DNA of 36,125 nt from Kipferlia bialata (GCA_003568945.1 BDIP01000051.1:1-36125); one strand, 5' to 3'. Numbered from the stretch's first letter, positions 1,458 through 29,062 are shown. Notes: generated by a model from the sequence alone, not told the origin. A program made the numbers and translations.

Positions 1458-3824
1458 ATGCTTGCCTCCCTCCGCTCCGTCCGCCCCTCCCTCTCTGCCC
1501 TGTCTGCATGCTTCAGCGTGTCCTTCTGTGACGACACGGAGCTGGCACACATGCTGGGGAGGTATGTATCATGTGGACACACATATCTGTATGTATAAAG
1601 GCAAATATAGGCATGGGACTGCCTATCACGTAATACTGGTTGTTTCCGGTGTGTTATAACTGTGTATAGCTATATTTTAGCTTTATCCCACCCCCTGTTG
1701 TGTGGGAGGTGATTGTTGAGTTGGCACAGTTTGATACCGGTACCGTCTGTTGACTTTGTGGATCTATCCATGTTTCACCCCCACACCTCTCTAGGTGTCT
1801 TCCTAGGGTTTTTTTATGTCTTGTAACTGTCGCAGCATTGACTCTTATCTGGTTTCGTGTCTCTTTGATCATCGTTGTCTACTGTTTCTCACTCGTCAAT
1901 CATATCACGTTTGTCATCTACTCAATCTCCTCCAATACACTATCACCCTGAGCATACTGTACCATATGCCTCTGTGTACGCTATATCCTTCTCATTGGTG
2001 CCCTCGTCAGACTTATCTCACCCCCATTATGTTGATGTGTCTGTTACCAGGTACCCCGACCACACTGCCTCTGCCATATTGAAATATATATATATGTGTA
2101 CATAGCAATACCATGTATATGCATACATATAGATACTGATACTGGTACTGATACCCAGGTACCCCGACCACACTGCCTCTGCCATATATGTATGTACACA
2201 CACATATTTGTATAGATATCATATACCATGTGTATAGATACATACTGATACTGATACCCAGGTACCCCGACCACACTGCCTCTGCCGTTGTGCCCCTCCT
2301 CCTGATGGCATCTGAGAGGTAGGATGGGTGTGTATATGTATATATATATATATATGTGTGTGTGTACATTGGTGGAGGGAACGGCTCATATTATCTCTTC
2401 GTCTGGTAGGTAGTGAGACAAGGATATAGAGATTATTACATTCTCTCTCTACAATGCACACCCACTCCCTTTACCTCTCTAACCCCTTACAGTGTCTGTC
2501 TCTGTGTATCTCTCTGCAATGCATACTCCTCCTCCTCACCCCAGGACCGGCATCACCGACGAGGTCATCGCTGAGATTGCCAGGGAGACCGGGTCCAAGG
2601 CATCAAAGTGAGTGGATACTATATACTGTATATAGTGTATAGTATATATAGTATATATATATATATATAGTATGTGTGATTGCCGAGATTGCCAGGGAGA
2701 CTGGGTCCAAGGCATCAAAGTGAGTATATTGGGTATATAGTGTATGTGGTGTAATATATTTTTATAGTATATATATATCATGTGTCATTGCTGAGATTGC
2801 CAGGGAGACTGGATCNNNNNNNNNNNNNNNNNNNNNNNNNNNNNNNNNNNNNNNNNNNNNNNNNNNNNNNNNNNNNNNNNNNNNNNNNNNNNNNNNNNNN
2901 NNNNNNNNNNNNNNNNNNNNATATTTATAGTATATATATATCATGTGTCATTGCTGAGATTGCCAGGGAGACTGGGTCCAAGGCATCAAAGTGAGTGTAG
3001 AGTGTATAGGGATTATCTTGGTGTCAATCCCGTCTGGTAGAGTCTCACCCCCAGGGTGTCTGCCGCCACCGACTTCTACCACATGCTCAACAGACACGCA
3101 CCCCCCAAGCACGACATCAAGGTAGGAATGGGCGGTGTCAGTAGTGAAATATTGTATTATCATTGCATAGGGAGTTTGTAATCCCAATAGCAACACTAAG
3201 GTGGGTAGTGTATATAGTGTATATAGTGTATTTGTATGCAGTCCCTCACTGCAGATCTGCACCTCCCCCTCCTGTGCCCTTGGTGGCTCTGAGGCCCTTC
3301 TGGCCGAGATCCAGGCCAAGGCCGACATCTGCAACGAGGGTATGCATACTGTTGTATATGTATATACTCATATGCTCTACCCCATCTCTTACTCCAGGCA
3401 TCCCCGAGGGTGATGCCCTGCTTGTGGGTATAGTATATATATATGTGCATACTATTGAATATGTATATACTCCTATGCTCTGCCCCATCTCTTACCCCAG
3501 GCATCCCCGAGGGCGATGCCCTGCTTGTGGGTGTGGGTGAGTGTGAGTGCCTGGGCGCATGCTGCTCTGCCCCTGCTGCCATGGGTGAGTGGGTGCACTA
3601 TATATACTATGATTCATATTTTTGTCTCTCTCTTTCTCTCTTTATATAGTCTAATCCTCAGTTGACGGCTGCATCCAGGACCACCTATCTCTCTCTCACA
3701 CACACACGTTCTCTCTCTCTCTCTCAATATATATATATATGTATTTTGACCCCCAGTTGATGGCTACATCAAGGACCACCTGTACATGGGGGACCTCGAC
3801 ACCATATTCGAGTCCTGCTGCTAA
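1458..3824 (+). CDS. nuoE: NADH dehydrogenase 24-kDa [2Fe-2S] subunit (NuoE/NDUFV2), probably targeted to a mitochondrion-related organelle; 7 exons, 175 aa
   Basis: Exons 1458-1561, 2262-2318, 2545-2607, 3055-3121, 3255-3339, 3501-3584, 3757-3824 join in phase: MLASLRSVRPSLSALSACFSVSF...RYPDHTASAVVPLLLMASER...VSAATDFYHMLN...ICTSPSCALGGSEALL...ECECLGACCSAPAAMVDG...CC*. The C-x4-C and C-x3-C (CLGAC) cluster ligands and the FY motif match the NuoE family. Confidence 0.93.
2048..2286 (+). repeat. Three copies of the NuoE intron-1 acceptor plus exon-2 start (two intronic echoes and the real exon)
   Basis: CAGGTACCCCGACCACACTGCCTCTGCC at 2048-2075, 2156-2183 and 2259-2286; only the last continues into the full exon. 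Confidence 0.95.
2564..2996 (+). repeat. NuoE exon-3 3' end plus donor, repeated at least three times inside intron 3
   Basis: GAGATTGCCAGGGAGAC[CT]GGGTCCAAGGCATCAAAGTGAGT at the real junction (to 2613) and at about 2680-2725, 2785-2815 (runs into the N gap) and 2947-2996. Confidence 0.95.
2816..2920. other. Assembly gap (N run) within a repeat array; a second small gap lies at 9021-9029
   Basis: Run of N in the sequence. Confidence 0.99.
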
Positions 3825-4242
3825 ACAGGAGAGAGACTGTGGAGTGACTGTAGAGTGACTCTGTGATAGGATATGACTGAATAGATGGATGGGTGTAGTG
3901 TGTATGGGTACTTGAGTCACTCAAGTACACTCAATGAGTGTTTGTACACACCTTCCCTGACACACACTCGAGACATGCCGTTGGACGGATACGTCATTCA
4001 CTACGACTGCATGTCTTTCTCACCAGAGTGTTATATTGACTATTTATTACATATACAGGCCCTGCCCTCCTCCTATAACCATTAGACACAGTCCATGGCA
4101 TAGAGAGGGGGCAGGGGGTGGGGGTGCGGTAGGTGCAGTGTGTGTGTGTGTGTGTGTGTGGAGGGACGCCCTAGCGTGGGTGTCTCCTCCCATTCCACAC
4201 ACCCTACACCACAGCCTCTCTCTCTCTCTCTCTCTACCCCCT

Positions 4243-4874
4243 TTACTGGCTCTCCACCACAGACTCCAGCACCTGGGTCAGCTGCTCCGCCTGCTCCTCC
4301 CTCTCGGCCCTCTCCCGGGCAATCTCAGCCTCGACCTGGGGGGTGAGGCATTGCACTATTCACAATATCTATACACACACTGTATATACCTGGTGGTGGC
4401 CTGTCTCGATGTCCCTGAGTGCCCTCTCCACCGACTGCATCAGCCTCTCCACCCTGCCAGACAGGGTGGTGGACCTGCGCTCAATGTCCTCGAGGCGGTG
4501 GGAGGTGTGGCCGTCCTGGGGGTTAGTATACGTGTTACACACAGATATAGTATATACAATACATACATATTGCATACCTGCTCCTCCTTGGCAAGGGTGA
4601 CTGGCAGCATATATATACATATACATATATACATAATAATACACAGTATATACTATATATGAATGTACCTGCTCCTCCCTGGCGAGTGTGACTGGCAGCA
4701 GCTTGTAGTCAACCATGCGCTGGAACACCTCGCGGCCATCCCTAGGGGGTGAGGTGTATGTGTACATGTATTTAATAATATATAGAATATATACATATAT
4801 ACACATTCATACCTGATGAAGACCAGTGCCTCGTTGATCATCCTGACACGCTCCTCGTCCTCCTTCTCCTGGGG

Positions 4875-4907
<33 letters not shown>

Positions 4908-6390
4908 TGTGTGTGCCCATACACATGCCCTCCCACCTTCTCCTGTCTGAACTGCTCGTACTCAGCCTTGAAGTCGAGGAGGGACTGGCGCACAGAGTCC
5001 CACAGCCTGGGGGGTCAGGGGGAGGGAAAGAGAGACAATAACAAGTAGGATAACATGTATGAACAAATGGAAACCCACCTTGTGTCCTTCTCTGAGGCAT
5101 CGTTGTGGTAGTTCTCGAGGAACTCAGCCATCTCGGCAAAGTGAGAGGTGGCACGGGACTGGGGAGAAGGAGGGATACATAAGTGGGATAGAGGTACATA
5201 CTATACACACATACCTTGAATGCCTCGAACCCCTCCCTCTGGCCTGTCAGCTGTGTGTCGAGGGCTGTGATGGAGGTGTCGAGAGAGGCCATCCTCTCCT
5301 GGGCAGCGGTCAGGCCCTGGGGGTGAGGGGGGGTATGCATATATGGGTATGGGTATGTGTGTACTGGGGGTGAGGGTACACTCATACACAATGCTGGCAG
5401 GTGCGCCATATACATAAATGTATACACTAATACCTACTGCCTGGTCTCCTCTGCTGTGATATGCATATATATTTTATATGTATAGTGTTATATATGGATA
5501 TCTATATACATATCCATACCTGCTGCCTGGTCTCCTCGGCTGTGATGAGGGCCTTCCTCTGGTTGGCAATGGCAAGCTCTGGAGGGTGAGGGTGTGTGTG
5601 TGTGTGTGGGAGAGAGAGAGAGAGAGAGAGAACGAAGCCAGACACTGATGAAACACCCTGGTCACACAGTGCATATACACATATTCATACTATACATACC
5701 GCACTGCAGGAACCTCTGCTCGATCCTCATGGCAAAGGGTACTAACAATATATATATATATATATAATACATATAAATACTATACATACCGCACTGCAGG
5801 AACCTCTGCTCGATCCTCATGGCAAAGGACCTGGCAAACTCAGCGTTCATCTGCCTCTGGGGGTGAGGGGGCATGGAATAATATAAATAACATATATACA
5901 TGTAATATAATGAATACACACATATATATATATATATAGTACCCAAATGCCCATACCTGGGATGTCTCCTCGGCAGCCACGCTGGTCTGCAGAGAGCGGA
6001 GCTTGGCCTCAAGCTCACCGACCTAGAAGTAAGAGAGACTGGGAGAGAGAGGGTAAGGAGAGGGGACACAGTGTATCAGGACTTGCCGCGTAATGATACA
6101 GTGTGAGAACACACATATACATATATCCATACATCCCCCACCTGTCCCTGCTGGGAGGCCAGTGTCTCCTGCTGGCCATCGAGGATGGTGCGGGTGGAGT
6201 TGAGCTGGGACTCGAGGGAGGCAGAGGTCACGGTCTCCACCTCGGCAGCTAGGTCGTCCTGCTTCAGAGCAGAGGAGGCGGCAGCGCCGGAGCCCTCAAG
6301 CCTGCTCTGGAGGGACAGGAGCCTCTGGGAAAGGGGGGAGTCAGCTGGAGTAAGAACGGTGAATGGCCGGAAGTATACGTTTCTAAGCAT
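4243..6390 (-). CDS. Coiled-coil protein, SF-assemblin/beta-giardin-like; about 12 exons
   Basis: In-phase exons give MLRNRLLSLQSRLEG...VGELEAKLRSLQ...LWDSVRQSLLDFKAEYEQFRQEKEKEDEERVRMINEALVFIRDG...VEAEIARERAEREEQAEQLTQVLESVVESQ* (TAA 4243-4245). EDEERVRMINEAL and the C-terminus resemble beta-giardin segments as I recall them (DDDTRVKMIKDAI; EEIDREKAERKEAEDKIVNTLEDVV). The start may instead be 6441. Confidence 0.7.
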
Positions 6391-6732
6391 CAAGAACAAC
6401 GTGGTAGAGCATAATCCCAGTGAAAACACTCGAGATAGCATGGACTGAGGCTATAGAATGAAACAATACCTCCAAGCAATTCTAGACGTCATAAAAGACA
6501 CCTGGAAGCTAAAGAAACCTCCAAATACCACCACACTAAGAAATAATGCACCAGCAGCCAGATACATACCCATTTTCAAGGATAAAAGTGAACTGACTCC
6601 AATCATCATATTTGCTCCGACGGAACCCTTTTGCATCGGTTTTTGTTTCTTGCCTAGCCCCTTTCTATAGGCTTCGCAAAACACACAAATGATAGTATCA
6701 GTGGGCGCCACGCTTCTCGAGTCGATCTAGCA
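6391..6732. promoter_or_regulatory. Probable bidirectional promoter region between divergent genes
   Basis: About 340 bp of non-repetitive spacer between two head-to-head start codons. No specific motif identified. Confidence 0.4.
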
Positions 6733-9160
6733 ATGGAGAGGTCCACATCCATCGAGAAGACAAAGTCCGAGGTCAAGAAGAACCTCAAGCCCTTCGAGCA
6801 GTACGTAGGAAGTGTATACTGTGTTTGGGAGCTGCAGTGACGTGTGACCTGCGAAGCTTTGTGTTTTGGCCTCTAACCTCCAGCTGGCTCACCTTCTGGG
6901 CCGATGGTCTCTTCTTTGAGAACAAGGTCTCCTTTGGCGCCTTCATTGCCGTCGATCTGGCCATCATCCTTGCTCTGATCAAGATCTCCTTCCCCCCTCT
7001 GTTCTGCATTGTCCTTGCATGCATCGCCACCCCTCTCCTCAAGTACGGTCACCCCCATGTATATCGACGCTTCTCTACCTCCTTGCTGCTGTGACCTCTC
7101 TCTCTCCCCTGCCTCTGACCGCTAGGGAGGGCCTTGTGCGCTCCTCCGCCCGCCTGTTCCCCCAGGGCTACACCCCAGGCCACGAGGGTGCTGGGTTCGA
7201 CAACATCGCCCTGGTAATCGCCACAGTCATGTTCCACGTCAGGAAGGAGGTGTCTAGGATGAAGGTATGGGGTGGTATGGACATGTGTATCATATGGGTG
7301 TACACGGTGTTGACGAGTGGTGACTGTACACCATGGGAGGTTGGGTGCGTGGGTGGATGTGTGTGTATGTGTGGTATTATTATCTACCCATTAGTATGAA
7401 GTCTGTGAATACTATTAATGACGGATACTGTGTGTTTTCTCACATGACGTTCTATCGGTGTAGAAGTGGATGGCACACATTAGTCATCTCATTCAATACA
7501 TCCCCTACCAATCTCCTTCTCCATTCCTCCCTCACCTTCTATCCCCCCCCCTCACCTCTCAGACCATGCGCGAGAAGAAGTTTGGCAAGTACGTCATTGT
7601 GGCCGCTGTCGTTGCCGTGTGTGCCCTGTTTGTGACATACATCCTGCCCCTCAAGGCACTCGTCATCCTGGCTCTCATCGCTCTCGAGGTACCCTCAATT
7701 AGATATATATAATTAGATGTCTACATGTGTAGTGTGAGACATATATTTTTTTGGCACTCGAGGTGTGTAATTGTCATTTATACTCATTTCTCTCTTCCTA
7801 TACACCCTCTCCCTTAACTCTAGGTTGTGCCTGTGTGCTACAGGTACAAGATCAGTATCAGTATCAGTATCAGTACTCCCTCTCCCTTTACTCTAGGTTG
7901 TGCCTGTGTGCTACAGATACAAGATCCACGAGATGGCCATGGAGGGGGCCAAGAAGTCAATGGGGTATGGATATATATGGATATATATATATATAGATAG
8001 ATAGTTTGTAGTGCCCATGTGTCCCTCCACACCCCTCACCCCCAGACCCCTGATGGCCAAGGCCAAGACAGCCTCTGCTGACAAGCTGGCAGAGCTCAAG
8101 GTATGGATATACGGTGTAATAGTATCTATGGTATATATAGTATATATGTATTGGTGAGAGATGGAGGGACTGTCTCTGCTGGCAGAGCTCAAGGTACGAG
8201 TGGATATGTATATATATATATTCATAAGTATATATATACATGTGCATTAGTATGCATCCTGACCCCCAGACCTCCCTGGCCAACATCAAGGACAGGATCC
8301 CCAAGCAGGGCGCTGAGAAGCCAGTGGTCAAGAAGGTATGGGTGTATATATATATATATATATCAAAATCGATGTATATAAAGATAGACATAGCCAGTGG
8401 TCAAGAAGGTATGGGTATATGTGTATGATGATACTCTCATGTAGTGATAACCCCCCCCCCCCCTCACCGCAGTCTGTGCCCGAGCCCGTTGCCGAGGAGG
8501 CCTCGGAGGAGGAGGAGCAGGTACAGATAGGGTATTGTATATAGTATGTGTATAATACTATACAGTGTAGTATTGGTTGGATATACACTCCATACATACC
8601 AAACATACCCTGATTGTATAGGTGGTTGGGGGAGAGAGGGAGGGAGAGGGTGTGGAGGTTAGACAGCGCATGCCCTACAGCCCCACTCACCAGAGCATGA
8701 CAATATAGGTATACATGCATTGCATCCATATATGGTACTAAGTATATATACATTTCCATTCTTACCCCCCAGGCCCCCGAGCCCGTTGCCTCTCCTGAGT
8801 CTGAGCCCGAGGTAGTGGTGACACCCACCCCCGAGGTAGAGGAGGTGCCAGTGCCAGAGGCCCCAAAGGTGGGTATATGTATAGTGATGATGTGTATGGA
8901 GATATGGATGTGTGGTGGATGTATCTGGGTACTGTCTCTCTCTCTCCCCCTTCCCCCCTCATACTAGGCCGAGGAGTTCTCTGAGTATCTCTCTCTCTCT
9001 GTCTGTCTCTCTCTCTGTCTNNNNNNNNNAGTTCTCTGAGTATCTCTCTCTCTCTGTCTGTCTCTCTCTCTGTCTCTCTCTCTCTCTGCACCCCTCACCC
9101 CAGGCCGAGGAGTTCTCTGAGGACGATGTGGCTGACACCATCGGATCCCCATCCTTCTAA
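6733..9160 (+). CDS. Reticulon-homology ER membrane protein, ARL6IP1-like, with an acidic Pro/Glu-rich C-terminal tail; about 10 exons
   Basis: Spliced: MERSTSIEKTKSEVKKNLKPFEHWLTFWADGLFFENK-[hydrophobic hairpin]-SARLFPQGYTPGHEGAGFDNIALVIA...MKTMREKKFGKY-[second hydrophobic hairpin]-...PEPVAEEASEEEEQ...AEEFSEDDVADTIGSPSF*. The layout parallels ARL6IP1. Confidence 0.75.
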
Positions 9161-9166
9161 GTACAG

Positions 9167-9198
<32 letters not shown>

Positions 9199-9553
9199 CA
9201 TGATCGACTTGGAGTCTATGATGCTGGAATATAATAGAATGTTCATTTGTTGTCAGTGGAGATGGGTGGGAAGCTTGAGGCTGAATAATACAATATGAAA
9301 CACATTACTTGAATAACATAGTGTGTGAGTACACATTCGTCTATTCACGCTATTCTATTGTAGTTTCAGATGATATCACACCGTCTCCACTTCTAAGGAG
9401 AGTGCATCGTTGCAGTGAGAGCAGTACTATACACATCTAAACATCGTCTAGCAACACTGAGTGTTAATCACTCTCTCTACATCTGCACCACCAGTGTCTG
9501 TATGCTGTTCATGGGCACAGTATCAGTGTCAGTATCATAGGTAGATACACTAT

Positions 9554-12500
9554 TTACATCTCAATGACAACAGTCTGTATGCTGTTCATGGGCACAGTGG
9601 TCTGGAACATGAATGTGTCGTTGACTGAGACGCGCATGACCCTGGGAGTCAGAGGGAACATATGAATGTATCTACATTCACATATATATATATATATATC
9701 CATCCCCCCTACCTGTCGTAGTTCTGTCTGTTCATCAGCACCATCTTGGCTGTGCCTGTCAAGGGGTCAACCACAGCCAGGGACTCGACATCGTCCTTCA
9801 TCTGACAGTCTACAGTGAGTCAAGGTGTGAACATATATATATAGAGTATATACAATGTATAGACTCAAGACTCATTTGTCATTGGGTAGGCAGCTAAGGT
9901 AAACTCTTCTAGACTAACAGCACAATAACATAGTATACAGCCGTATATCAACAGCAATAACAGAGAACACAGTGCCGTCGGTCATCTGGCAGATCCATCA
10001 ATTGAATGAAAATGCATATATGTATTCACCCCCATATGTCTTGAACACTCAGTCCCATATATGTATAAACTATGTAGTATATAGAAGTGAATTATAGTAC
10101 ACCCAAACCTGTTTTCAAGACCATGTCCCCCGGTCTCATGTGCTTGGAGAAGTGGCCCAGATAGTACAGGTTGGGTCTGGGGTCAGTGTCATGTAATGCA
10201 TATTATCATACACTTATATAGATAGTAGAAGTATGTATATAGAGAGGCCAGCCCGTGTAGTACAGGTTGGGTCTGGGGTAAGCATCATATTATGAATATT
10301 ATCATATACATACCATATAGTATATATATATAACAGTAGTAAACATAAAGAGAGGTATTACAGGTTGGGTCTTGGGGTAGATATCAATGTTTATCTCTCT
10401 ATCACTGTATACACATCCCCTTGCCTAGCCTCTATGTCTGTGTACAGCTCAAATATACAGATTGTAAGTATATACACACTGGTATGTGCATCTATCTACC
10501 TAGCCTCGATGTCTGTATACAGCTCATTGGCTATGATGGGGGCATCACACGAGTTGGCATTCTTGTTGGGGCCTGGGGTGAGTCTCTCTCGATATATAGA
10601 CACATACTATCACCACGCATTCCCAGTATCCCCCTCTGTAGTCCAGCATGTTCCAGATATATATATAGACTCCTCATAAACATATATATGTGTTGTATCA
10701 TATGTATGCTTGGAGGTACTATATATACACTATCCACCCACCCCCTGTGTAGTCCAGCAGCATGTTCCAGACATATGTATATACCCATTCAATATATAAT
10801 ATGCACATCTATATTGTCTATGTCTATATTTATACACTATAAACTATCCACCCACCCCCTGTGTAGTCTAGTAGCATGTTCCAGATGACCCAGGACTGGG
10901 CACCGCTCCTACAGGGTGAGGGTGAGGTACATCATGGTGATACATATGATATATATATATAAATTCACGATTTTACTATTCAGCATCCTGGGGGTGAGAT
11001 GTATATATGCCTATATATGTACATACATACCTATAGTGATATATATAAACCCTCACCTGATGTCCCAGAGTATGTCCCTGTATGTATCACTCTCTCTCAC
11101 CAGTCACATCCATTATCCATATATTCTGATATACACCCTACACTCTATACCTAATGTCCCACAGTATATCATGCCCCACGGCCTCTGCCCTACTCCACAG
11201 GGTGTCAGAGTCAGACGTGAAGGGGCAGGAGCAGGCCTGGGTAAGGTATGTGTATGTTGGTATCAAATGTATATATAACGAAGCAGAATATACATGAATG
11301 GGGATAAGGTGAAGGGACAGGAGCATGCATTTGTTGGGGGTATACGGAAACTTCTATATATACATAGTACATGTAGACCATATCTCGTTAATTAGCATCA
11401 GGGTGTCTTTGGCCACATATGTATATATAGAATTAATACATCTATATCTATCTATACCCATCCCTACCTCTGTCCCCATAAGCAGGGTGTCCTTGGGGTT
11501 CTCACTCCACCTGGCTGTCAGAAACGCGGTATGCAGTCATACTGTACCAACCATATTGTCTATGACATTTTGTATATATGTATATATATACTATAATGTT
11601 GTCATATATCCTACTATATATATGGTACTATCATACCTGATGGTCCATGCCACGCTGTTGACATCCTCAAACTCAGCATCAGTGGTCTGGGGTGAGTAAT
11701 GATAGAGGCATCAAACACACACACATGTATGGACATGGATACACTTCCTCACCTTGAGCCAATGATTATTATTATATATAGACTTCGTTCACATGTCTGT
11801 TCCGTACCTTGTACCAGTGGAATGCCACTCAAGCAGTACATGTTCATAAATACACATGTATATGTATATATATATATAGATACACAAATATATATATAAC
11901 TACATCCACCCACCTTGTACCAGTGGAATGCCACTCCGTCTGTATACATGAAGATATACATACATGTATCATGTCTATATACACTTGCTCTCTGTATGTA
12001 CACCCACCTTGTACCAGTGGAATGCCACTCCGTCTGTGTACTCACCAACACCTGGGGTGAGAAGAGAGAGTGGGCGTGTCGAGAGAGTGCTAATGGGACA
12101 TGGCAAATGCCGTGTGTATGTGACAGCAGTACCATTAGTGACAACACACCTGCCACACTGTGATATGCCTCAGTCCATCGCCAAACACACACATGTATAT
12201 GTACATATATATACCATACATATTTACATACCTGGCACACTGTAGTATGCCTCTGCCCACTGCAGGATGTCCTTCTTGTCATGGTCGAAGACAAGGACCT
12301 GGGGGTGAGGGGGATAGGTGTATATATAAATACACACACACACTGTGTATATACTATGTACTATGTATATAGTATGGGCATGGTGTATGATGTCCTTCTT
12401 GTCATGGTCAAAGACCTGGGATTAGTGGGAATGGTGTAAATGTATGAATTATTCCACATGGATGAGTACAATCCGGTCTATACACCAATGCCTCGATGGC

Positions 12501-12705
12501 TGTCAATATATATGTCTATCTAAGTATACCTTGATGTCTGTGCCGTTGTCCTCGTTGTAGGCCTGGATGGCAGGGCATGGGGTGAGAGGAGAGAGAAGTA
12601 TGTGTATGTATATATTATACATAATATACACATATTAGTATAATCAATATCATACATACATCTGTCTGGATGGCAGGGCATGGGGTGAGAGAGGTGTCTG
12701 GGTGC

Positions 12706-12757
<52 letters not shown>

Positions 12758-14623: not shown

Positions 14624-14653
14624 CTAGGGGTGAATGGAATGGTGTATATGTAT

Positions 14654-14685
<32 letters not shown>

Positions 14686-14832
14686 TAGACATAGGAGGCA
14701 GACTCTGGATGAGAGTAGAAACCATAGAGAGAGAAAGGGGGGGGGGGGGGGACAGAGGAGCACTGGGGGGGGGGGAGAGCCTGCGGATATAGTATTGGGT
14801 ATGGAAGGGTAACTGGCCTATGATCCAGTAAG

Positions 14833-15705: not shown

Positions 15706-16519
15706 ATGTCACGTTATCGTGCCTGGCCACTTGTGTTGAGTGTGTTGCTGTGCCTAGCAGCCTGTCTTGGGTCCAAGTCTCCACTCAAGGCCAGCCTCAT
15801 TGGCCACAAGCACCATCTGGTCTCACTGTCCCCTGATAAGAGGTGTATATAGGTGTCCTCTCCCCTCCATTTCTGTATATATTTCTTGCCCCAAGCGTAA
15901 ACAATACCCTTTGAGTGAGCTGAATAGTGCTTGCACTTGTGCTCTCGTCTGTTCTCTATGATAGTCAGTGTCCACCGACTTCATTACACTGTCATTTATA
16001 CTATGGTTAGTTTACTATATTCCACTGCACTCTTACCCCAGCAAGAGACCATATGTGACCGACCTCCAGTATAGAGACTCCGTGTCAGTGCACCTCACAG
16101 ACATGGAGCCAAATGGAAGGTATGTAGATGTATTCATATGCATATGTGTATATGAGTATATATATATATGTATGTAGTTGGGTTACTGCTGTTGGAGTGC
16201 ACCTCACAGACATGGAGCCCAGTGGAAGGTATGTATGTATATATATATATATATGTATGTATATATATATATATGTATGTATATATATGAGTGTATATAT
16301 TTATATATCAGTTACGTCACTGGTGTTGTAGTGCACCTCACAGACATGGAGCCCAGTGGAAGGTGAGTATATACATGTGTTTGTGAGTGTATAATACCAT
16401 ACCTGTATAGGCGTTGGGTTACTGCACTTGTCAGTGGTGCTAGTGTTGAGGTATCTCACTCCCAGATATGAGCTAGTGTACTTCCCGACCCCAGAGTGCC
16501 AGGCCTCCCTGACACTGAG

Positions 16520-16562
<43 letters not shown>

Positions 16563-18622: not shown

Positions 18623-18903
18623 TCTGTAAGGAATAGAATGAACAATTGTCCCTCGTTACACTGTCCATCGCAGTACCCTTGTCATTGGCAGTTCTTGGGA
18701 GTAAGACACATATATGCTTGGAGTGGTGTCTAAGATAGATCAGTGATCAGGTCACTGCAGGCTGCCGTCTGAACTAATCGTAGGAACAGTGATGCGGAGT
18801 GTGACTGAGACGACAAGTGGCTCCTTGTGTGGGGCATCTTTGCCTCAAGGTAACAGGATCAGTGTCTGCAGTGCAGGGTTATAGGTGCTCGGAATCCCTT
18901 GCC

Positions 18904-19660
18904 AAGGGATTATCCCTTTGAGTCCAGACTAGGAGGAAACCACATGGCAATCGGGTGTCTGCTTGGACTATGAAACAATCGTACTTCATATCCCCAGAGG
19001 AGCCATATGATATATGATGTCAGTCAGTATTGCAAGTATGACGGGTAAAGTGTCTGAGAATTCGACTTTACGAACGCATCACAGAGGCATAGAGAGGGAG
19101 AGTGGATGAGTTGGTGCTTTCGTCATTGCCTGATTGGGTCTCAATACTAATAACGCAGACTATACTATAGAGTGTATAGTGAGCACTGAACTACTTGTTC
19201 AGTGAACTACATAAACCTGCAATGACCAATCAGCCATATACAAGACTCAGTGACTGTAACCAATATTCCTAACGTAACACTCACTAAAGAATGACATTTA
19301 CGATATTACCACTGCGGTCACTCCGTGGTCTATCCTTCTAGATCTGTTGATGCGTTTTGGATTCGTCACTTGTCACAAGTGACTCACTTGTGACAAATGG
19401 CACCGACACGGAAGATGGGTTCCGCTACAATGATGAGTCATAAGTTATGACTCATAATGCATCTATGACAGAGAGAATATGTCTCCATTGGAGAGTGAGG
19501 ACCTCATTGAGGTTGTTACTGAAATAGAGAGCCGGGGGGTTCTCTATTCTCCAATTCACAGTATGGAGGAGAGTAGGTCTGTGTTGGGGCCAAGAGGCTC
19601 TGTAGGGTCGGGGACCGTCGAGGACCCTCTATAGACAGGAGTCATGTCACATGATTGTTG
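18904..19660. repeat. Cluster of short inverted repeats with 1-nt spacers
   Basis: AAGGGAT-T-ATCCCTT 18904-18918; GTCACTTGT-C-ACAAGTGAC 19365-19383 overlapping TTGTCACAAGTGA-C-TCACTTGTGACAA 19370-19396; ATGAGTCATAA-G-TTATGACTCAT 19433-19455. Confidence 0.8.
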
Positions 19661-20450: not shown

Positions 20451-20458
20451 ACTGACAC

Positions 20459-23400
20459 CTATGACATGAACTGCCCGTACACTGCCACTCCAGCCAGTCC
20501 CAGACACAGCCAGTTGAGGGCCTCCTGCTTCCTGTTCCACCGGCCAAAGGCCTAGGGTGAGGCATAGAGGATATATATATATGATATATATACACATATA
20601 TACATATACATACAATATGTCCCACATGCCAGAGGCCTGAGGTATGAGGTGGACGCGTAGTATATAATGGATGTATATATAGCACATCTATCCACAGATA
20701 CTATATGTGTAGGGTGCCATAGGCCAACCGGTGGGGCATGGACTGACTGCATACAGCATACCATGAACACCAATAATATATGCAGTGGCAATGAGATATC
20801 GGTGCAGGTCTCTACTCTTGCAGATAATAAATATTACACATATACACACAAGAGTGCACTTACCTGAATGATACTGTGACTCAACACACACACACATATA
20901 TCTATATACGAGAACCATATATAAATGTCGACAGTACACCCCCCCACCTGGATGATCTTTTTGTGGCTGAAGCATGGGATGAGGAATGCGTATATGCCAC
21001 CACCCACAGCCCCAGCAAATCCTGAGGGTGAGTAGCTATCCGCGAGATACTAGTATACATATAGGTAAGGACCACGACTGAGAATAGTAGTAAGAGAGCC
21101 CTGACCACCGCTTAGCTCTCCGAGAGAGATCAGTACATACATATCCTATCTGAATACAGAGAAATACGATACAAGACACTAACACACTGTCCCCCAAGAT
21201 GTCTCCGATATATATATATACTACCTAGGATATACATACACACTACCTAGGATGTCTCCGATATTTGGATAGAACAGAGCACACATGAGGCCTATAAACA
21301 CCACAGCTGCATTGGCGCTGTACTTGACCAGAGGATTGAGCATGGGGTCCATCCTAGGGGTCAGATACTAGAACATTGAGAGACATATATCTACATAGTG
21401 ATAGATACTATACATGTATATGACTATGCCCTGCAAAGGGTTCAGCATGGGGTCCTTCCTAGGGGTCAGACGTATTATCATACTAAAACACATATAAACA
21501 GTGATAGAATCATATATAATAACATATATACATATATATACACATATATATAAGAATACCCTGCAAAGTGTTCAGCATGGGGTCCTTCCTAGCTATCAGA
21601 CACTAGGCCTAATACATTGAGCACACACATATATATATGGTGATATATATATGTATATGTAACTAAGCGTATCCTGTCACTGGGTCCAGCCTTATATGCT
21701 GGATCTACTGTATACTATCCTACTACACGTGTATATGAATATGAATGTACTTACACACAGAGTATATATATATACACCTATATATATACACACGTATATA
21801 CCTAGCGTATCCAGTCACTGGCTCCAGTCCAACCTTCTGTGCCAGGGACTGGTTGGACTCCTGTACATACAGGTCAGAGGCTGGGGTCAGGGAGATATGT
21901 ATATGTATAATTTAATATATGCATACTTGCTGTCCGTACAGGTCAGAGGCTGGGGGTGAGGGATATGGGAATAGCAGAAAACAAATATATATGGATGGAC
22001 GAACACTCCACATGGCTCTGTTGGTACAGGTGAAAGGATAGGCAGCATTTACAAACATATATACACTTATCCATTCCTCTCCAAACTTACACACATAATA
22101 CATATTGATTATACATATGTAGGCATATACATAACCATACCCATACCTGCCCTGCCTCTCTTCGGTGTATATACCCTTATCCACTCCTCTCCTAACGTAT
22201 GTATATAACTATATATATATATGTATATAAATACTATATATATACACCCGTACCTGCCCTGCCCCTCTTGGGTGTCCCATACCCTTAATCCATTCCTCTC
22301 CTAACGCATATGTATATACATATATATATATATTCGTATATGAATATATCCACCCATACCTGCCCTGCCTCTCTTGGGTGTCCCATACTCCACACCCTCA
22401 CCTAAGGGGGTCAGTGGAATATTAGTGGTACTATACTATACTATAATGGTACTAAGGGTCAGTGTCAGTGGAATGGAAGTAATACTACCAATAGACTCAA
22501 TATTGTCATGATTATGAAATCACACCTGACACTGAGATCAAGATACAGTAAATATTTATGCAAATATGTGCTTAACAACCCACCCTGGTACAGAAGTGCC
22601 TGGCCCTCAGTGGTGTGCTCAGGGTGCCCCATGTCTCTCTCTCTCTCCCCCTCCCTCTCCCCCCCTCTCCCCTCCTCAGTGTCGATGACACTCAGCCTCG
22701 AGGGACGCTCTGGGGTTAATGCAAGCTAAAATTATATACATATACATACATATACATATCTCATCATATATTTCACTCTATACAAACACTCAGCCTCGAG
22801 GGACGCTCTGGTGTTAATCTAAGGTATAATGAATATATACTCAGTATATATCTCACAATGTATCTCACTATTAACCTCACAATACACAAACACTCAGCCT
22901 GGACGGCTGCTATGGAGTCGTTACCCAATACAGTCTTGCTCACTATACATATATACATGCCTGGGGCCTTGGGGGGGAACACATGTATATATGTATGAAT
23001 CACTAAATACAATTATATCCAAACAGTATATGAGACACTATAAACACACACCTGGGGTCTTGGGGGGGAACATGGGAGCCTCACTCCCATCCAACGTCTC
23101 GCTCTCTTCCTTGTGGAACATATCAATGGACCGCTGAGGTTAGGATAGGTGGATAGAACCAAGAGTAGCAGGGAAAGATGGATAGATATAGTGTGGTGTT
23201 GCTGGAATAACTAGGCGCGGTTCAGTTAATCAAATATACTTGAGGAATAGTGACAGTATCAAACACTAATATACACATATATCTATATATCTGTATAGAC
23301 ATATAATATCTGTGTATTCCTATGTATTCCTATGTATATGTGTATATCTATGTATATCTATGTATATTATATATATATATATAATATCATATATATAATA

Positions 23401-25471
23401 TAACATATTGCATAATACAATATATTGTATATATGGAGTATCTGTGTATGCCTATGTACATGTATATGTGTCCATACCCTTGACACCCTGGGTGTTGATG
23501 CCGCATCTCTCATCCTGACGGACAGGGCATGTCTCTTGGCCTGGGGTGGGATGTCTATCACATATATATATATATATGTGTATATATGTGTATTCTATAT
23601 ATACATATATTATACAGATACGAATACATGTATATAGGCACGTCTCTTGGCCTGGGGTGGGGGACACATTATGGATACATATCACACATATATAAATGTA
23701 TATATATGCAATGTATTCAGATAGCATATCTACATGTATATGGGCATGCCTCTTGGCCTGGGGTGGGGGGCATATTATGCATATATATACACTTCTATAT
23801 ATATATACATATGTGCCTGGCTGTCCCTCCTCTGGTACTCTCTCCCTCATAGTACATATGTACATATATATGTGTATATATATACTTCTATACATGTATA
23901 CTACTCTTCACCTGGCTGTCCCTCCTCTGGTCCGTGTACATCCAGTATACAAACATAGGAGAGTCTACACATATATACAGAGTATAGAGTGTATGTACGT
24001 ATACATACATACCTGGCTGTCCCTCCTCTGGTCCGTGTGTATCCAGTAGATGCCAACAAGGTTCTCTGGCACGTTGGAGTATATATACTACATATATGGC
24101 ATGTTAGACGGGGATAGATAGAGAGGGGGGGAGAGAGAAAGAGGGGGGGGAGAGAGAGAGAGAGAGAGAGATGCCAACAAGGTTCTCTGAAGCATGTTAG
24201 ACAGGGAGAGTATATATACGACATTACTATATAGCAAACTTGGTTCTCTGGCATGTTAGACGGCGATTATACAATTATGCACCACTTATCTACTCCAAAA
24301 TCGATGCCTGTAAGGCAAGCACAAGTAAGAATAACCAACAAATCTTCTGTGCCACTAGACAGGGACCAGTATCAGAGTCAATATCAGGAGAGTACGATAC
24401 ATGTGAGTGTATATGAGGATGAACGGTAACCTCTTCAAGTCTGAGAATATTACCGAGCAATATGTGTAGTATCCGTACATACATATCACTCAAGAAAGAC
24501 AACATAACAATCTCCATCTTCATATGCATACCTCTAACTATGAGGATGATGACTGGGAACACGCAGAGAGTATGATACACATGAGCATGTATGAGGATGA
24601 CCGGTTACTACATGTGCATGTATACCTCTAACTATGAGGATGATTACTGGGAACACGCAGAACAGGTCCAGGAACAACAGAGCAGACACAATGCCGGTGG
24701 CCAGATCCTCAGGGAACAGCTCGGACTGGGGGTGGGTATATATATGGGGTTAAGACACATACTCTACTTAGAGTATTTAGAATACTTACAGTATACACTT
24801 ACACGTATATAGCTCACACTCCCTACAATAAGAGACATTTGGCACTGCGTACACATAGACACACTGTGTCATATTCAAAGTTAGAATAGTGGATGTGAGA
24901 CATACACCATGTCACGTACAAAGTCCTGAGGGATAGACACATACTCTACATGCCGTATACACACACATATATATATAAACATGAATCTACACTTAAGTCA
25001 CGTACAAAGTCCTGTGGGATTGTGATGCCCCTGTACCCGAGCATGCCTATGCTGCCCACTGTGACATTAAGGACTAGGGTGATGAGGTAGGACAGCCACG
25101 TGTCCCGGGTGCGCTTGGGGGGGTTGCCATGACACCTGTGGGAAGGGAGAGAGAGAGGGAGAAAGAATGGGAAGGAAAGCAACATGGTATGGAACTACGA
25201 CCCTTCTCCTTGCACAATATCACTTTGTTACTATGAGATACATTTGTGCCCACACATAAACATACCTCATGATTGTGAGGATGACGGAGTGGATGAAGAA
25301 GTTGGTCACACAGACACCCAGGAACTTGAGGGTCTGACATAAGGGGCTAGATGGAGAGAGAGAAGAAACAGAGAGATAGAGAGAGAGAAGTTGGTCACAC
25401 CTACACCCAGGAACCTGGGGGTCTGGATGTGAGGGGGTGGTTATGTAGATACTATATATATGTATGTATAC

Positions 25472-25504
<33 letters not shown>

Positions 25505-27640
25505 CTGTGCGGGTGAGTAGACGGGCAAAGAGAGAGAATGTCAAACATTCCACTTGCAGCCATATGAACTCTATTCTACTGTGCATTGACCAGTGCGAAC
25601 AATTCAATACTGACACTGATAGGAAGCATAGATCTAATCTTACAGACACATTATGTAATATACATACAATACCTGTATTGTGATCTTTGGCACCTCTACC
25701 CCATACTATATATATATGAATTAACTATATATATATATATATATACGATGTGGTACACCTGTATTGTGATCTTTGGCACCTCTGCCCCAACCTGGGTGGG
25801 CATGTTCTGACAGCCTGGGGGGGGAGAGAGAAGTATACTTAGTAACGATACTCCACCCTACACCCTATAGGTATATTGTATATTGTATGTATACAATATT
25901 ACATAATGGCATGCTCTGACACCCTGTGTGATACAATGACAATCCCTGGCTCTATGCTACCATGGGATAACCAGGTATATATATATATATATATATAAAT
26001 GCATATATATACTAGGTATATATACCTAGGTACACAATGTACACCGCCAGGAACCCCATGGCCACAAACCCATAGCTGCCTGGGGTGAGGGTGCAGAGAG
26101 AGAGAGAGAGAGAGAGAGAGACAGCTACACAGAGGAGTGAGGAGAGTATTTCTATACGGCAGAGTACGTCTAACGCCTATTGATGATGATCACAAACCAA
26201 GGATACATGCATAGATATGTATGTATCCACGTACCTAGCTTCACGATCTTGTCGATCTTTGTGATGCAACTGACACCAAAGAGACCCACCATGACAACCA
26301 GCGACAGGAACACATCGGCCTAGGGTAAGTGTTATGCTGACAGTACATAGATATATAAGTATATATATATATATATCCTTAGGATACTATGATACAGTGA
26401 GACATTACCACCAGGGAAAGAAAGACATCGGCCTAGGGTCAGCACGTGTAGGTATGTGGATTGTGTATATGGATATATATATTACATGTTTAGTATGCAC
26501 TCATACAATGATGCAGGCCATGACAAACAGGGACAGTAAATACCTTGAATGTGGGCACTGCTAGGCATACCTTGATACACACACATATATATATATATGT
26601 ATATATATCATACACTGATATATATATATTATTATATGTATATACCTTGAATGTGGGCACTGCCAGGTACACAATGTGCTGCAACAGATGGGTGCTGGGG
26701 TGAGGGAGAGGTACTATCACGGGATTCGAATAAGTTACAAGACAGCCAGAAGTAGTGAATGTGTATACTCCACATCTCTATATTCAGACCCACCGGATGA
26801 CAGAAGATAAGTACCCGTCTGACACATATATAGAGACTGTAGCAGAAATCACCGATAATAGTAATCCCTACCCTGTGGTACCCAACCCACCTAATTACAA
26901 AGTAGCTGATGGAACCCCCCGTCATGATGATCAGAGAGGCATATATATATGTATATACTAATACATATATATATATATATCATACAAGTATCACCATGTC
27001 ACCTAATTACAAAGTAGCTGATGTACCCCCCTGTCATGATGATCAGAGAGGCATATATATATATATATACTAATATATATAGACAAAGTTATGTTTCACA
27101 CTCCCTATATTATACTATATTATACTGGAGTAGCTACTATGTTACCTAATGACGAAGTAACTGATGGACCCTCCTGTCATGATGATCAGAGAGGCATAGC
27201 GGGTGAGGGTGCTGCTCCAACGGCCTGGTATTAGGGCGAAAGGAGAAAGAAAGAGAAAGAAAGAGAGAGAAAGCAATGAGCATATCAGATTGAGGTATAA
27301 TAGGAAGTATAGGGTATATTGTGCATATACATGGTGTATAAGTGGTTAGACAGAGTGACAGAGAGAGGGAGAGACAGAGGGTCTCGACAGATACATAATT
27401 GAGCGACCAATATGGATGCCCGACAACACACACATACACACACACATGTATATATAAATAGCAGACTGGGTACCACCTGGGTAGCACCTCTAACAGAATT
27501 ACTATAATACTTGGAACAATAGTATCACACAAATGTATTACTAAGTGGCATTCAGTTACTTCACTGTGGGTACCTAGGTACATCTCTGATATCTCTGGGT
27601 AGTCAAGGGGGACAGGGCGGCCCTGAATGTAAGGGTGTAG

Positions 27641-27671
<31 letters not shown>

Positions 27672-28287
27672 TAGTCCAAGAGGACAGGGGGGCCTTGAAG
27701 GTCAGAGAGAGAGACAGAGACATAGAGGGCACCGAGGGGAGAGAGAGAATCAAAGGGGGTGTTTGCATCAACCGGACTGGATAATACAGTGTAGGTATAT
27801 ATATATATATACCCAATACTACTGAGGCAGTACCTGACTGAGCAAGATGGCCACATCTCTCAGAATGTATACACATGTGGTGCCGCATATAATCATGGCA
27901 ACTAGAGCAGCTAGGGGTCCACCTACGAATAAGGGTGTAGAGAGAGAGAGAGAGAGAATGATCATAGATACCAGGGCAGCAAGAGGGCCGATCGGTTCAG
28001 GGGGTAGAAGAGAGAGAGAGCATGGGCATATCATGGTAGCTAGGACCACTAGCACACCGAAGTATTGAGAATAGTTTAGGTGTGGGTCAAGAAAGAGTAC
28101 TGGATTACTAATGTGTATACCAACAGTGGAACACCACAGAGCGTGTCAAGTGTGGAGTACAAATAATTATAGAGGATATATATATTGAGGAGACGCACCC
28201 CATATTCCTGCGATCTGGTACCCCCAGGGCAGGGACAGGATGGTGGCACCATTCATGGTGGATACAAGTCTCAGGGTTAGAGAGGGG

Positions 28288-28318
<31 letters not shown>

Positions 28319-29062
28319 GGGCAGGATGGTGGCACCATTCATAGTGGATACAAGTCTGATGGTAAGGAGGATGGAAAGACAGAGAGAGAATGAGATATGG
28401 GCAGAACAGTGGAGACAGAACTGTTACTTGGAGGATGAAGAGAGAGAGAGTGAGAGAGTGAGAGAGAGGATTGTCCTACTTGAAATACAAAAGCTAGAGG
28501 GAAAGGAATATGGGTGGGTGGTGGGGGTGGGAGCCCCAATGTGAGAAGAGCCCAATACATAGAGTGAAGGTTACGCGAGAGAGGAGTAAGAAGAAATACT
28601 TCCAAATGCACGCCAACAAATCCTACACTGACCCATAATGGCTCAATACTAAGTCCCGCTGATGCTAGAAGAATAGGTGGGGTACATAGAGGCAGGTGAC
28701 TCTCACACCGAGTTTCAAATAGGCAATGATTCAAATCTACATACGTGAAGATGATCTCCCGACTACTCTTTGGCTGGAGTGCCTCTCCTCCTGCAGTGGC
28801 AGGGGCAGCATAGAGTGTCCCTAGAGTCAGAGACCGTGCAGAAGAGTGACACACATGCAAGCTATTACTGAATCCTCAGTGCATGCACAGACCATACAGA
28901 TAGACAGGAGTCATAGCACATGTACACAGGTACCACCCCCAGCAGTATATACACCCGTAAACATACACACGCACCATCCTCACTGGACATCCCAGAGGAA
29001 GGAAGATTCATGACTGGGGCTGACTGAGGGTGTAGAGACCTGTTTTTGTCTTGACGGTACAT
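20459..29062 (-). CDS. SLC38A9-like amino acid transporter (Aa_trans/SLC38 family); about 22 exons
   Basis: In-phase exons: KSSREIIFTLVSTMNGATILSLPWGYQIAG, LDYPEISEMYLGRWS, FLGVCVTNFFIHSVILTIMR, RTRDTWLSY, FCVFPVIILIVR, LFYPNIGDILGFAGAVGG, ending LAGVAVYGQFMS* (TAG 20459-20461). These parallel recalled SLC38A9 motifs (NTMMGTSILSIPWG, FFIHN, FYPNIG, QFFM). The start at 29062 is tentative. Confidence 0.88.

Follow-up and report, generated by a model that had tools for sequence, protein, structure and literature searches.

Short copies of exon ends, together with their splice sites, recur inside the introns of the free-living protist Kipferlia bialata, raising the question of what template they were copied from and whether splicing makes use of them. 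The sample was a single 36-kb scaffold (BDIP01000051.1, 36,125 nt; hereafter the window), on which all counts of these copies, here called echoes, rest. Deposited and curated gene models were used; an automatic gene finder had called several echoes as exons. Echoes were sought by comparing exon-only 45-mers with their own intron at a score of at least 26, a level reached in 6 of 9,916 cross-intron null trials per side, and by a junction-anchored search, which disagrees with the first on one intron. A general repeat search of the window was dominated by TA and GA runs. The product of G1, whose protein matches PF01257 weakly, is presumably the NuoE/24-kDa [2Fe-2S] subunit, and that of G8 we take to be COMM-domain-like. 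The GH30 gene (G4) has further exons upstream of the 19 modelled.

A preliminary description of the window had reported echoes in many introns of six genes, and the copies were present in all 14 of the ranges it gave. The junction-anchored search found 56 echoes in 33 of the 72 introns of these genes (46%), and 33 of the 72 also matched their own exon 45-mers. Donor echoes were found by themselves in 13 introns, acceptor echoes in 10, and both in 10, with 1-2 copies per junction (Table 1). The echoed exon part measured 27 ± 9 nt (range 10-53), the filler 77 ± 21 nt (shortest 43 nt), and the period 105 ± 20 nt. The real-site dinucleotide was intact in 47 of 53 junction-flush echoes (donors 25/29, acceptors 22/24). 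The term pervasive fits the six genes but does not extend to the three genes at 29,100-36,125, where 29 introns held no echo (Fisher p 1e-6). An acceptor echo in a seventh gene (253-277) and an echo of a stop codon (9477-9521) were additional to those described earlier.

Table 1. Genes and echoes in the window (positions from its first nucleotide)
Feature	Position	Strand	Remarks
Seventh gene, acceptor echo	253-277	-	real exon about 112-179
G1	1458-3824	+	7 exons; 4/6 introns with echoes
G1 intron 1, two acceptor echoes	2051-2075, 2159-2183	+	real acceptor 2261
G1 intron 3, donor echoes	2676-2719, 2947-2990 (array 2676-2996)	+	4/4 differences synonymous
G1 intron 5, acceptor echo	3398-3429	+	whole unit 93% identical to real one
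G1 intron 6, acceptor echo	3662-3686	+	
G2	4243-6606	-	coiled-coil-like protein, matches no known family
G2, donor echoes	4578-4609, 5434-5460, 5700-5738	-	stop codon in 5434-5460
G3	6733-9160	+	predicted membrane protein
G3, acceptor echo	7824-7853	+	
G3, donor echoes	8178-8193, 8392-8408	+	
G3, acceptor echo	8968-8985	+	near N gap
G4	9554-14623	-	glycoside hydrolase family 30 (P0002); 19 modelled exons; 9/18 introns with echoes
G4 3' flank, echo of last 15 codons and stop codon	9477-9521	-	no splice site
G4 intron 16 (10177-10499), acceptor echoes	10258-10272, 10353-10370	-	
G4 intron 16, donor echo	10425-10451	-	GT to GC
G4 intron 15 (10573-10855), donor echoes	10742-10771, 10631-10658	-	first intact, second broken
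G4 intron 14, donor echo	11056-11082	-	three synonymous differences, GT intact
G4 intron 13, acceptor echo	11309-11328	-	AG lost
G4 intron 11, donor echoes	11808-11830, 11914-11947	-	
G4 intron 10, donor echo	12150-12177	-	
G4 intron 9, acceptor echo	12389-12415	-	
G4 intron 8, acceptor echoes	12666-12679, 12824-12833	-	both copy non-canonical AT acceptor (modelled)
G4 intron 8, donor echo	12887-12920	-	
G4 intron 2, acceptor and donor echoes	14016-14037 (acceptor), 14167-14208 (donor)	-	
G4 intron 1, acceptor echo	14444-14465	-	
Acceptor echo upstream of first modelled G4 exon	14680-14706	-	
G5	16042-18622	+	protein without known identity; model uncertain at 3' end
G5, donor echoes	16196-16228, 16330-16362, 17033-17053	+	
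G5 intron 1, array	16083-16436	+	
G6	20459-29062	-	amino-acid transporter (P0001); 22 exons; 11/21 introns with echoes
G6 intron 19, acceptor echoes	21434-21458, 21571-21588	-	
G6 intron 19, donor echo	21666-21689	-	
G6 intron 18, acceptor and donor echoes	21930-21949 (acceptor); 22147-22168, 22254-22282 (donor)	-	fillers alignable
G6 intron 16, acceptor and donor echoes	22786-22807 (acceptor), 22961-22981 (donor)	-	donor GT to GC
G6 intron 14, acceptor echoes	23637-23651, 23742-23757	-	
G6 intron 14, donor echoes	23817-23836, 23912-23947	-	first with GC
G6 intron 13, acceptor and donor echoes	24169-24186 (acceptor), 24532-24567 (donor)	-	
G6 intron 12, donor echo	24920-24934	-	
G6 intron 10, acceptor and donor echoes	25386-25422 (acceptor), 25673-25703 (donor)	-	
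G6 intron 7, acceptor echo	26403-26432	-	6/6 differences synonymous in 10 codons
G6 intron 7, donor echo	26544-26565	-	
G6 intron 6, donor echoes	26891-26943, 27003-27055	-	6/7 distinct differences synonymous
G6 intron 4, acceptor echo	27668-27694	-	AG lost
G6 intron 3, diverged acceptor-side echo	27956-27991	-	9 third-position differences in 11 codons, one residue change
G6 intron 2, acceptor echo	28317-28355	-	
Echo-free control region	29127-36125		G8 (+), RPL24 (-), calpain (-); 29 introns, median 91 nt; approximate models

The polarity noted earlier is real as a layout: 54 of the 56 echoes reached the junction, none of 144 wrong-side probes matched, and donor echoes preceded acceptor echoes in all 10 mixed introns. 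It is not a special feature, since any head-to-tail duplication that spares the reading frame yields the same arrangement and only such duplications survive. The junction bias is likewise mostly geometry; in a simulation, 86% of tolerated duplications of about 100 nt spanned exactly one junction. Intron length rose by 93 nt per echo (Spearman 0.64), and 7 of 53 units showed whole-unit homology, as plain tandem copies do, supporting the earlier proposal that local duplications spanning junctions make introns longer. Searches of the introns for inverted echoes and ungapped extension past the echo ends yielded neither inverted copies nor hidden homology. Two arrays adjoin N gaps (2816-2920 and 9021-9029), and the duplicates flanking these gaps look like scaffolding artefacts; the G1 intron 3 copy at 2784-2815, beside the first gap, may be such a scaffold duplicate and was left out of the difference counts.

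The differences between echoes and their exons were more informative about the template. Among 86 distinct differences, 54 were synonymous (63%) and 55 fell at codon position 3, whereas a dead copy alone would give 23-31% synonymous changes and a dead copy with an evolving exon 35-45% (p 1e-7 to 5e-4). Against 22.7 synonymous differences expected, the ratio was 2.4 (bootstrap over 43 arrays, 1.4-4.1), and synonymous:replacement counts were 31:19 on the donor side, 23:13 on the acceptor side, and 14:11 in the GH30 gene by itself. In donor echoes, GT differed at 4 of 58 sites compared with 64 of 174 at +3 to +8 (Fisher p 4e-6); in acceptor echoes, AG differed at 2 of 48 sites compared with 77 of 240 at -3 to -12 (Fisher p 1e-5). 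The filler was alignable in 7 of 53 units, whereas a divergence of 7, 16, or 35% should leave 48, 41, or 17 units alignable, respectively; its alignment fell as exon divergence grew (rho -0.33, p 0.016). The 32 replacements were no more conservative than random (BLOSUM -0.33 vs -0.40), and 4 of 12 GH30 replacements fell in conserved columns; plain decay therefore makes up a large part of the differences. Among the GH30 echoes, 3 of 12 echo residues were commoner than the exon residue among 70 homologues. The copies are now dead, as is evident from the two stop codons and 6 broken dinucleotides among them. The comparison of echo with exon nevertheless suggests two working alleles rather than a gene and a dead copy, a pattern that we present as new. 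The preliminary description had noted neither this tracking of codon and splice-site constraint nor the kinship with known mirage repeats.

We consider the chances even that many echoes were copied from a diverged allele during break repair off the homologue, closed by end joining, and then left to decay. After a break in a TA-rich intron, one broken end would invade the homologous chromosome through exon homology, copy the homologue's intron and splice site, and run 10-55 nt into the next exon. The copied end could not anneal in register, since the introns of the two alleles would no longer match, and polymerase theta would instead join it, at a microhomology, to what remained of the old intron. 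A sister chromatid as template would instead give identical echoes with alignable filler. Copies taking in a whole exon or intron would be purged, fixing the polarity, and the captured copy would then decay by about 3% per site. In the available text of PMC8516963, K. bialata is credited with PolQ and Spo11, and Ku70 is absent.

An allelic template is favored because the synonymous share is 63% rather than the 35-45% expected passively. It is also supported by the stop-codon echo at 9477-9521, in which TAA is replaced by TAG, the peptide is kept with three conservative residue changes, and no splice site is present; this echo and that at 27956-27991 are the most striking two and came from a search weighted for that pattern, the latter from a codon-weighted search and thus outside the echo counts. 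Visual inspection suggested microhomology at only two or three breakpoints, for example, 8 nt (16083-16090/16429-16436) at the inferred breakpoint of the G5 intron 1 array and 4 nt at the 3340 array; most fillers are unalignable. Allele capture would require alleles that differ by about 9% extra at synonymous sites and by >35% in introns. Against allele capture, protein searches for a second allele or close paralogue returned only the window's own proteins (the next GH30 match was 45% identical); a paralogue as template was likewise rejected for want of a close one, although the assembly is fragmented. The RNA run, from one strain, showed one version only at 85% likeness, in contigs that drop variants. 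A metagenome search for a relative gave 172 pattern matches, none confirmed, and the single match to a splice-motif pattern (L001) was unrelated satellite DNA. The narrow period, the 43-nt filler floor, and the echo-free right third are not accounted for by allele capture.

A broader form of this proposal, to which we give somewhat less than an even chance, is that Kipferlia introns are an archive of alleles. Each echo would be a fragment of a diverged haplotype, left by overshooting meiotic or mitotic repair between chromosomes matching only in their exons and closed by polymerase theta; intron growth throughout the genome would be driven mainly by this process, with outcrossing and allele diversity documented by echoes in the tens of thousands.

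The strongest rival, which we regard as rather unlikely, is that the echoes are ordinary mirage duplications off the same chromosome, made by slippage or sister-templated repair with TA filler and decaying passively. Random duplications of about 100 nt reproduce the junction bias, the seven alignable units are plain tandem copies, and 9 of 43 arrays show no difference from their exon. De novo filler beside the splice site would account for the divergence at +3 to +8, and the synonymous excess weakens to 38:31 (p 0.019) without the three most synonymous arrays. The unalignable filler would be attributed to fast microsatellite-slippage turnover or de novo synthesis, and the excess to faster exon substitution or later allelic conversion of the exon; the latter, however, itself requires diverged alleles. 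Passive decay falls short of the synonymous share observed. Nor does it produce echoes in which 6 of 6 or 9 of 10 changes sit at third positions, or an exchange of stop codons that retains the peptide. Echo-exon conversion as the source of the excess was rejected by reasoning, since it would erase both classes of difference alike and leave the ratio at about 0.5.

That echoes are kept for splicing, as nested introns formed by inner pairs or as stepping stones or decoys, is very unlikely. The dinucleotides are better preserved than the neighboring bases, a crude matrix gives 29 of 53 echo sites a score equal to or above that of the real site, and the inner gap has normal intron size (53-77 nt) in 4 of the 10 mixed introns. 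However, an inner donor-acceptor pair is possible in only 10 of 33 echo-bearing introns, the other 23 having one echo type, and the exon starts with GT, as a recursive AG|GT point needs, in only 3 of 20 acceptor arrays. Together with the 6 broken dinucleotides and the stop-codon echo, these counts weigh against the nested, stepwise removal that had been suggested; selection for splicing would also be blind to codon positions. The RNA evidence, spanning 10090-10925 and two loose ends, favored the other suggestion, that the spliceosome ignores the decoys. The contig joined the outermost sites (10176-10500 and 10571-10855) with no other letters, lacking all 323 nt of G4 intron 16 and all 283 nt of intron 15, and a loose end read the real exon (11151) and not the intron 14 donor echo. 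Intact decoy sites are skipped in the transcript examined at these three echo-bearing introns, although such end products are compatible with stepwise removal. The earlier statement that the outermost pair is always used thus holds for these three introns, but 3398-3427 may represent an additional exon of 30 nt that stays in frame. The first donor and last acceptor, which together define the smallest possible exon, are likely the sites that the spliceosome picks, as happens in human F7 and amphioxus, and the echoes themselves would need no function.

Least probable of all is an assembly artefact. Given a mixed or heterozygous culture, a short-read assembler would have strung at least two haplotypes together head to tail, and one would then expect differences to be synonymous, introns to be unrelated, and the period to lie close to read length. 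Such an origin agrees with the short-read SPAdes assembly described in the available text on the K. bialata draft (PMC5874029), the exact flank duplicates at N gaps in two arrays, and a filtered, incomplete DNA-run contig set with no contig over the tested arrays. However, the DNA-run contigs contain 0.97 of 993 sampled 31-mers from 9400-19000, where 19 echo breakpoints make up 6% of 31-mers, so that at least about half of these breakpoints are in reads. The stops and dead GT/AG, which working haplotypes would lack, the occurrence of as many as three versions of an exon end in a single array, and the presence of one version in RNA also tell against it.

So far, mirage repeats have been described at only a few animal loci, whereas the 46% of introns affected in these six genes are enough for statistics, which point to another copy of the gene, diverged but functional, as template. 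If this holds genome-wide, it would explain how duplications come to span junctions and how introns lengthen by about 100 nt at a time. In that case, the echoes would also offer many naturally duplicated donors and acceptors with which to study first-donor and last-acceptor choice, and a sequence record of haplotype exchange in Metamonada. The K. bialata spliceosome is reduced, with 87 of 174 proteins according to the available text of PMC6679479. In Metamonada, neither sex nor parasex has been directly observed, as stated in the portion of PMC8516963 covered; the echoes would be a trace of recombination in such a group, and under the archive reading, metamonad outcrossing and allele diversity could be read from a single genome. 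If the synonymous excess disappears genome-wide, the remainder would be an unusually dense case of a known, tolerated repeat.

Several known systems resemble the echoes in part. Introners, as far as the available accounts go, also alter many introns and place duplicated exon sequence at the border, but the duplicated exon part in Kipferlia is 10-53 nt; introners and transposon-derived introns were rejected as a source, with 1 of 5,050 masked intron pairs reaching a score of 40 and no terminal inverted matches in 101 introns. Stwintrons and nested or recursive (ratchet) introns share extra splice signals within an intron, but in the accounts covered they require either an intron inside the outer one or an AG|GT point, and most Kipferlia arrays have neither. 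Intron creation by duplication over an intron-exon boundary also carries splice signals along, and 3398-3427 could be an example; there the copy becomes a new intron, whereas in Kipferlia it stays inside and lengthens the old one. One-sided invasion followed by polymerase-theta end joining leaves short direct duplications with filler DNA and microhomology. The echoes share the direct duplications and filler and may share the microhomology, read by eye at few breakpoints; the literature covered on this process infers no diverged-homologue template from intronic codon patterns.

The 37-bp VNTR in human F7 intron 7 likewise repeats donor pseudo-sites downstream of the real donor, and these stay silent though functional, the most upstream donor being chosen (PMC1557585, available text). 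Unlike the echoes, it is one minisatellite with near-identical units on the donor side only, and that part of its description mentions neither TA filler nor a codon signal.

The closest likeness is with the mirage repeats of amphioxus (lancelet), described for the globins BflGb6/BflGb9, Adh3, troponin C, and PGBD5 (PMC3087553, PMC3902484, available parts); their origin was called unclear (PMC3087553). In the literature covered, neither repeats of this type in Kipferlia nor a synonymous bias in mirages is described, and "duplicat" is absent from the text of the K. bialata genome paper. The echo layout is of the mirage kind: as the available parts of these accounts have it, mirages are head-to-tail copies over the exon-intron boundary, at 5' or 3' ends, with AG/GT mostly kept and normally spliced mRNA (here at three echo-bearing introns), and with units of 10-160 bp (108 bp in PGBD5), compared with a Kipferlia period of about 105 nt. 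Those accounts, however, describe a small number of loci whose units, 6-7 at most, are homogenized and 81-100% alike along their full length, and make no mention of codon constraint, whereas Kipferlia has 1-2 copies per junction in 33 of 72 introns, an intron part that is mostly unalignable (7 of 53 units vs 41-48 expected), and differences that track codon constraint. Because their units are not alike over the whole length, the Kipferlia echoes are a variant of the mirage repeat and not a plain member of the class.

All counts refer to a single 36-kb scaffold of Kipferlia bialata. The genome paper describes this species as a fornicate that lives freely, and 124,912 introns of the GT-AG type are annotated in its short-read draft (PMC5874029). 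Exon queries returned one protein each, an amino-acid transporter (P0001, gene G6) and a family-30 glycoside hydrolase (GH30; P0002, gene G4), according to Pfam and to database labels naming K. bialata. The models of these two genes are the deposited proteins mapped exactly to the window, and the remaining genes were modelled using open frames and splice motifs. Six genes, G1-G6 (1458-29062), contain 72 introns, and three further genes (29127-36125, models approximate) contain 29. Internal exons varied little around a short median length of 68 nt (5-95% range 42-137), and intron lengths ranged from 46 to 700 nt. The longest, the first intron of the NuoE-like gene G1 (1562-2261, forward strand, 700 nt), has a lower TA content 5' of its echoes and contains additional acceptor-like motifs; the 5' model of G1 may be incomplete. 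G5 carries no family assignment, and at its end a long acidic, serine-rich frame (18020-18622, forward strand) is not joined in frame by the model. A palindromic motif of repeated GGTACC occurs at 849-862, 1735-1744, and 29368-29382, in each case close to a gene start or a first intron, and is possibly a promoter element.

The preliminary description held that introns here carry copies of the adjoining exon end with its splice signal (echoes), separated by TA-rich filler, and that introns grow by local duplication across junctions. Both statements held. Exon-only probes matched their own intron in 33 of the 72 introns of G1-G6, at a cut-off score that other introns reached in 6 of 9,916 trials per side. 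The junction-anchored search yielded 56 echoes in 33 introns (13 with donor echoes only, 10 with acceptor echoes only, and 10 with both); 54 of the 56 reached the junction, no echo was inverted, and 0 of 144 wrong-side probes matched. The echo period was 105±20 nt, made up of an exon part of 27±9 nt and a filler of 77±21 nt that was never shorter than 43 nt, and each echo added 93 nt to intron length. Microsatellites of related units (ATCAGT, CTGATA, and CAGTGTAT) occur at 7851-7875, 14833-14863, and 16591-16659, the first being the entire filler of one acceptor echo. No echoes were found in the 29 introns of the three right-hand genes (p = 1e-6), where TA runs were scarcer (0.057 vs 0.081 and 0.108). 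The switch from echo-rich to echo-free sequence is abrupt, and introns at 29100-36125 are short (median 91 nt). The echoes are real and dense, and their layout is already known.

The arrays were also compared with the contigs of a DNA run (X1), which is possibly the sample behind the window, so that the comparison tests the assembly and not the species. These contigs contained 0.97 of 993 sampled 31-mers from 9400-19000, where 19 echo breakpoints account for 6% of 31-mers; at least about half of the breakpoints are therefore present in reads. Alignment of X1 contigs to the window covered none of the tested arrays, a result of no weight for or against them. Two echoes contain stop codons and 6 of 53 have dead dinucleotides, and such echoes cannot be working haplotypes. 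Two arrays that adjoin N gaps are questionable; a single copy was excluded from the difference counts. At 2761-2975 and 8975-9075, exact duplicates (52 and 46 nt) lie on either side of N gaps and are likely scaffolding artefacts.

The polarity of the echoes was consistent, as first described (all 10 mixed introns have their donor echoes ahead of the acceptor ones), but it has no special meaning. After head-to-tail copying over a donor, the first copy would stay joined to the exon, and over an acceptor, the last; other arrangements break the frame, so polarity is forced by frame survival and adds no information. When duplications of the observed lengths were placed randomly on echo-free genes, 60% spanned one junction, 10% fell inside an intron, and the remaining 30% struck an exon or included an entire intron, so that 86% of the tolerated duplications were echoes. 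Purely intronic copies would also be difficult to detect because fillers diverge fast.

The preliminary description also held that the intact reading frame always uses the outermost splice pair, and proposed that the spliceosome either ignores the decoys or removes inner pairs stepwise as nested introns. A 1,682-nt contig of a second run (X2, classed as RNA by automatic guess) skips the introns at joints 10176-10500 and 10571-10855, reaches with its ends the exons at 9780-9809 and at 11151, and contains no other letters. In the three echo-bearing introns covered, the outermost sites were used, bypassing two intact acceptor echoes, a donor echo that scores equal to the real donor, and a second intact donor echo. 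A crude matrix ranked 29 of the 53 echo sites level with or above the real site, suggesting that splice-site choice is likely set by position rather than strength. In human F7, the first donor is chosen among repeats, according to the accessible part of the report (PMC1557585). A shortest-exon rule would account for the donor and acceptor sides alike. Nested excision is not needed, and it is impossible for the 23 introns with a single echo type; among 20 acceptor arrays, just 3 could re-form AG|GT. For the 10 introns with both echo types, stepwise removal would be compatible with the end products. In several introns of the deposited transporter model, upstream echoes outscore the real acceptors.

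Scores of real acceptors and upstream echoes in introns of the amino-acid transporter gene (G6)
Intron	Strand	Real acceptor	Upstream echo
28744-28270	-	1.2	4.5
25758-25334	-	1.3	7.7
24625-24066	-	-2.4	0.5

At 3398-3427 (forward strand), the duplicated stretch extends between the donor and a GGGT microhomology. It has left an acceptor, 30 bases in frame, and a weak GT, and may represent a new exon and intron of G1, the NuoE-like gene. Three introns apparently end in AT rather than AG (13555-13392 and 13001-12577, reverse strand; 17442-17664, forward strand), with the branch motif followed by CCCCAT|G. With AT acceptors, the GH30 model regains two conserved stretches that the deposited protein lacks, and its profile score is 468.5 rather than 445.2 bits; the AT acceptor is copied in two echoes. 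Such GT-AT introns, as read from the sequence, would escape the published GT-AG annotation. A metagenome contig matched by a splice-motif pattern is unrelated satellite DNA with an internal TTTAGGG telomere-like run (3120-3180).

The splicing puzzle is ordinary, but the divergence pattern is not. Across 43 arrays with 55 echoes, 86 distinct echo-exon differences were counted, 54 synonymous and 32 not, with 55 at codon position 3, 16 at position 1, and 15 at position 2. A dead copy would give a synonymous share of 23-31%, or 35-45% if the working exon also goes on accumulating synonymous changes; the excess had p values of 1e-7 to 5e-4 across transition biases of 1-10. With the replacements attributed to decay, at 3.0% per site, the expected number of synonymous differences is 22.7, which gives a ratio of 2.4 (bootstrap 1.4-4.1). 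The excess was present on both sides and, by count, in five of six genes; it was weak in GH30 (14:11), and removal of the three strongest arrays left p = 0.019. Splice sites show a like contrast: GT was changed at 4 of 58 donor positions vs 64 of 174 at +3 to +8, and AG at 2 of 48 acceptor positions vs 77 of 240 at -3 to -12. Of 53 units, 7 had filler alignable to the tandem partner, vs 41-48 expected at 7-16% divergence. A codon-weighted search, excluded from the counts, found an extra echo of 11 codons with nine third-position changes and one Ala-Ser change (score 28 vs a null maximum of 21.5 in 1,836). The GH30 end is echoed across its stop codon 77 nt downstream, without a splice site, with three conservative changes and TAA replaced by TAG. 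Against an allele-like origin, replacements were no more conservative than random; in GH30, 4 of 12 fall in conserved columns, while 3 of 12 echo residues are commoner than the exon's own among 70 homologues. The picture from these comparisons is that the echoes may be a mixture of allele-like divergence at birth, later decay, and some plain sister copies.

Because constrained features were kept and free ones changed, both lineages appear to have been functional over much of the period after they split. On a single chromosome only one of two versions of an exon end can work; with no close paralogue found in the protein searches, another allele is the candidate left. We tentatively read the introns as an archive of alleles, with the echoes as captured fragments of diverged haplotypes, at somewhat less than an even chance. 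The simplest route that we infer is break repair: a break within a TA-rich intron would let the broken end invade the homologue via exon homology, copying would run past the intron and enter the following exon, and the product would be closed by end joining to what was left of the original intron. In the available text of PMC8516963, PolQ and Spo11 are present and Ku70 absent in K. bialata; classical end joining is described, in the source text available, as absent from metamonads. At the presumed breakpoint of the 16120 array (G5 intron 1), an 8-nt microhomology was read by eye. For Carpediemonas, a life cycle that is haploid apart from a short-lived zygote is predicted (PMC8516963); such a cycle would leave these fragments in a culture that lacks a second allele, and none was seen in the X2 RNA contig data.

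Intron-family comparison within the window led us to reject Introners as the source of the echoes. Amphioxus and sea urchins, both hosts of mirage repeats, are highly polymorphic. The literature searched contained no report of such repeats in Kipferlia and no codon signal in mirage-type repeats. Amphioxus mirages are tandem copies of exon-intron boundaries that are silent in mRNA, and their mechanism is called unclear in the available portions of the two reports (PMC3087553, PMC3902484). As far as those portions describe mirages, the Kipferlia echoes share three of four testable features with them and differ in whole-unit likeness.
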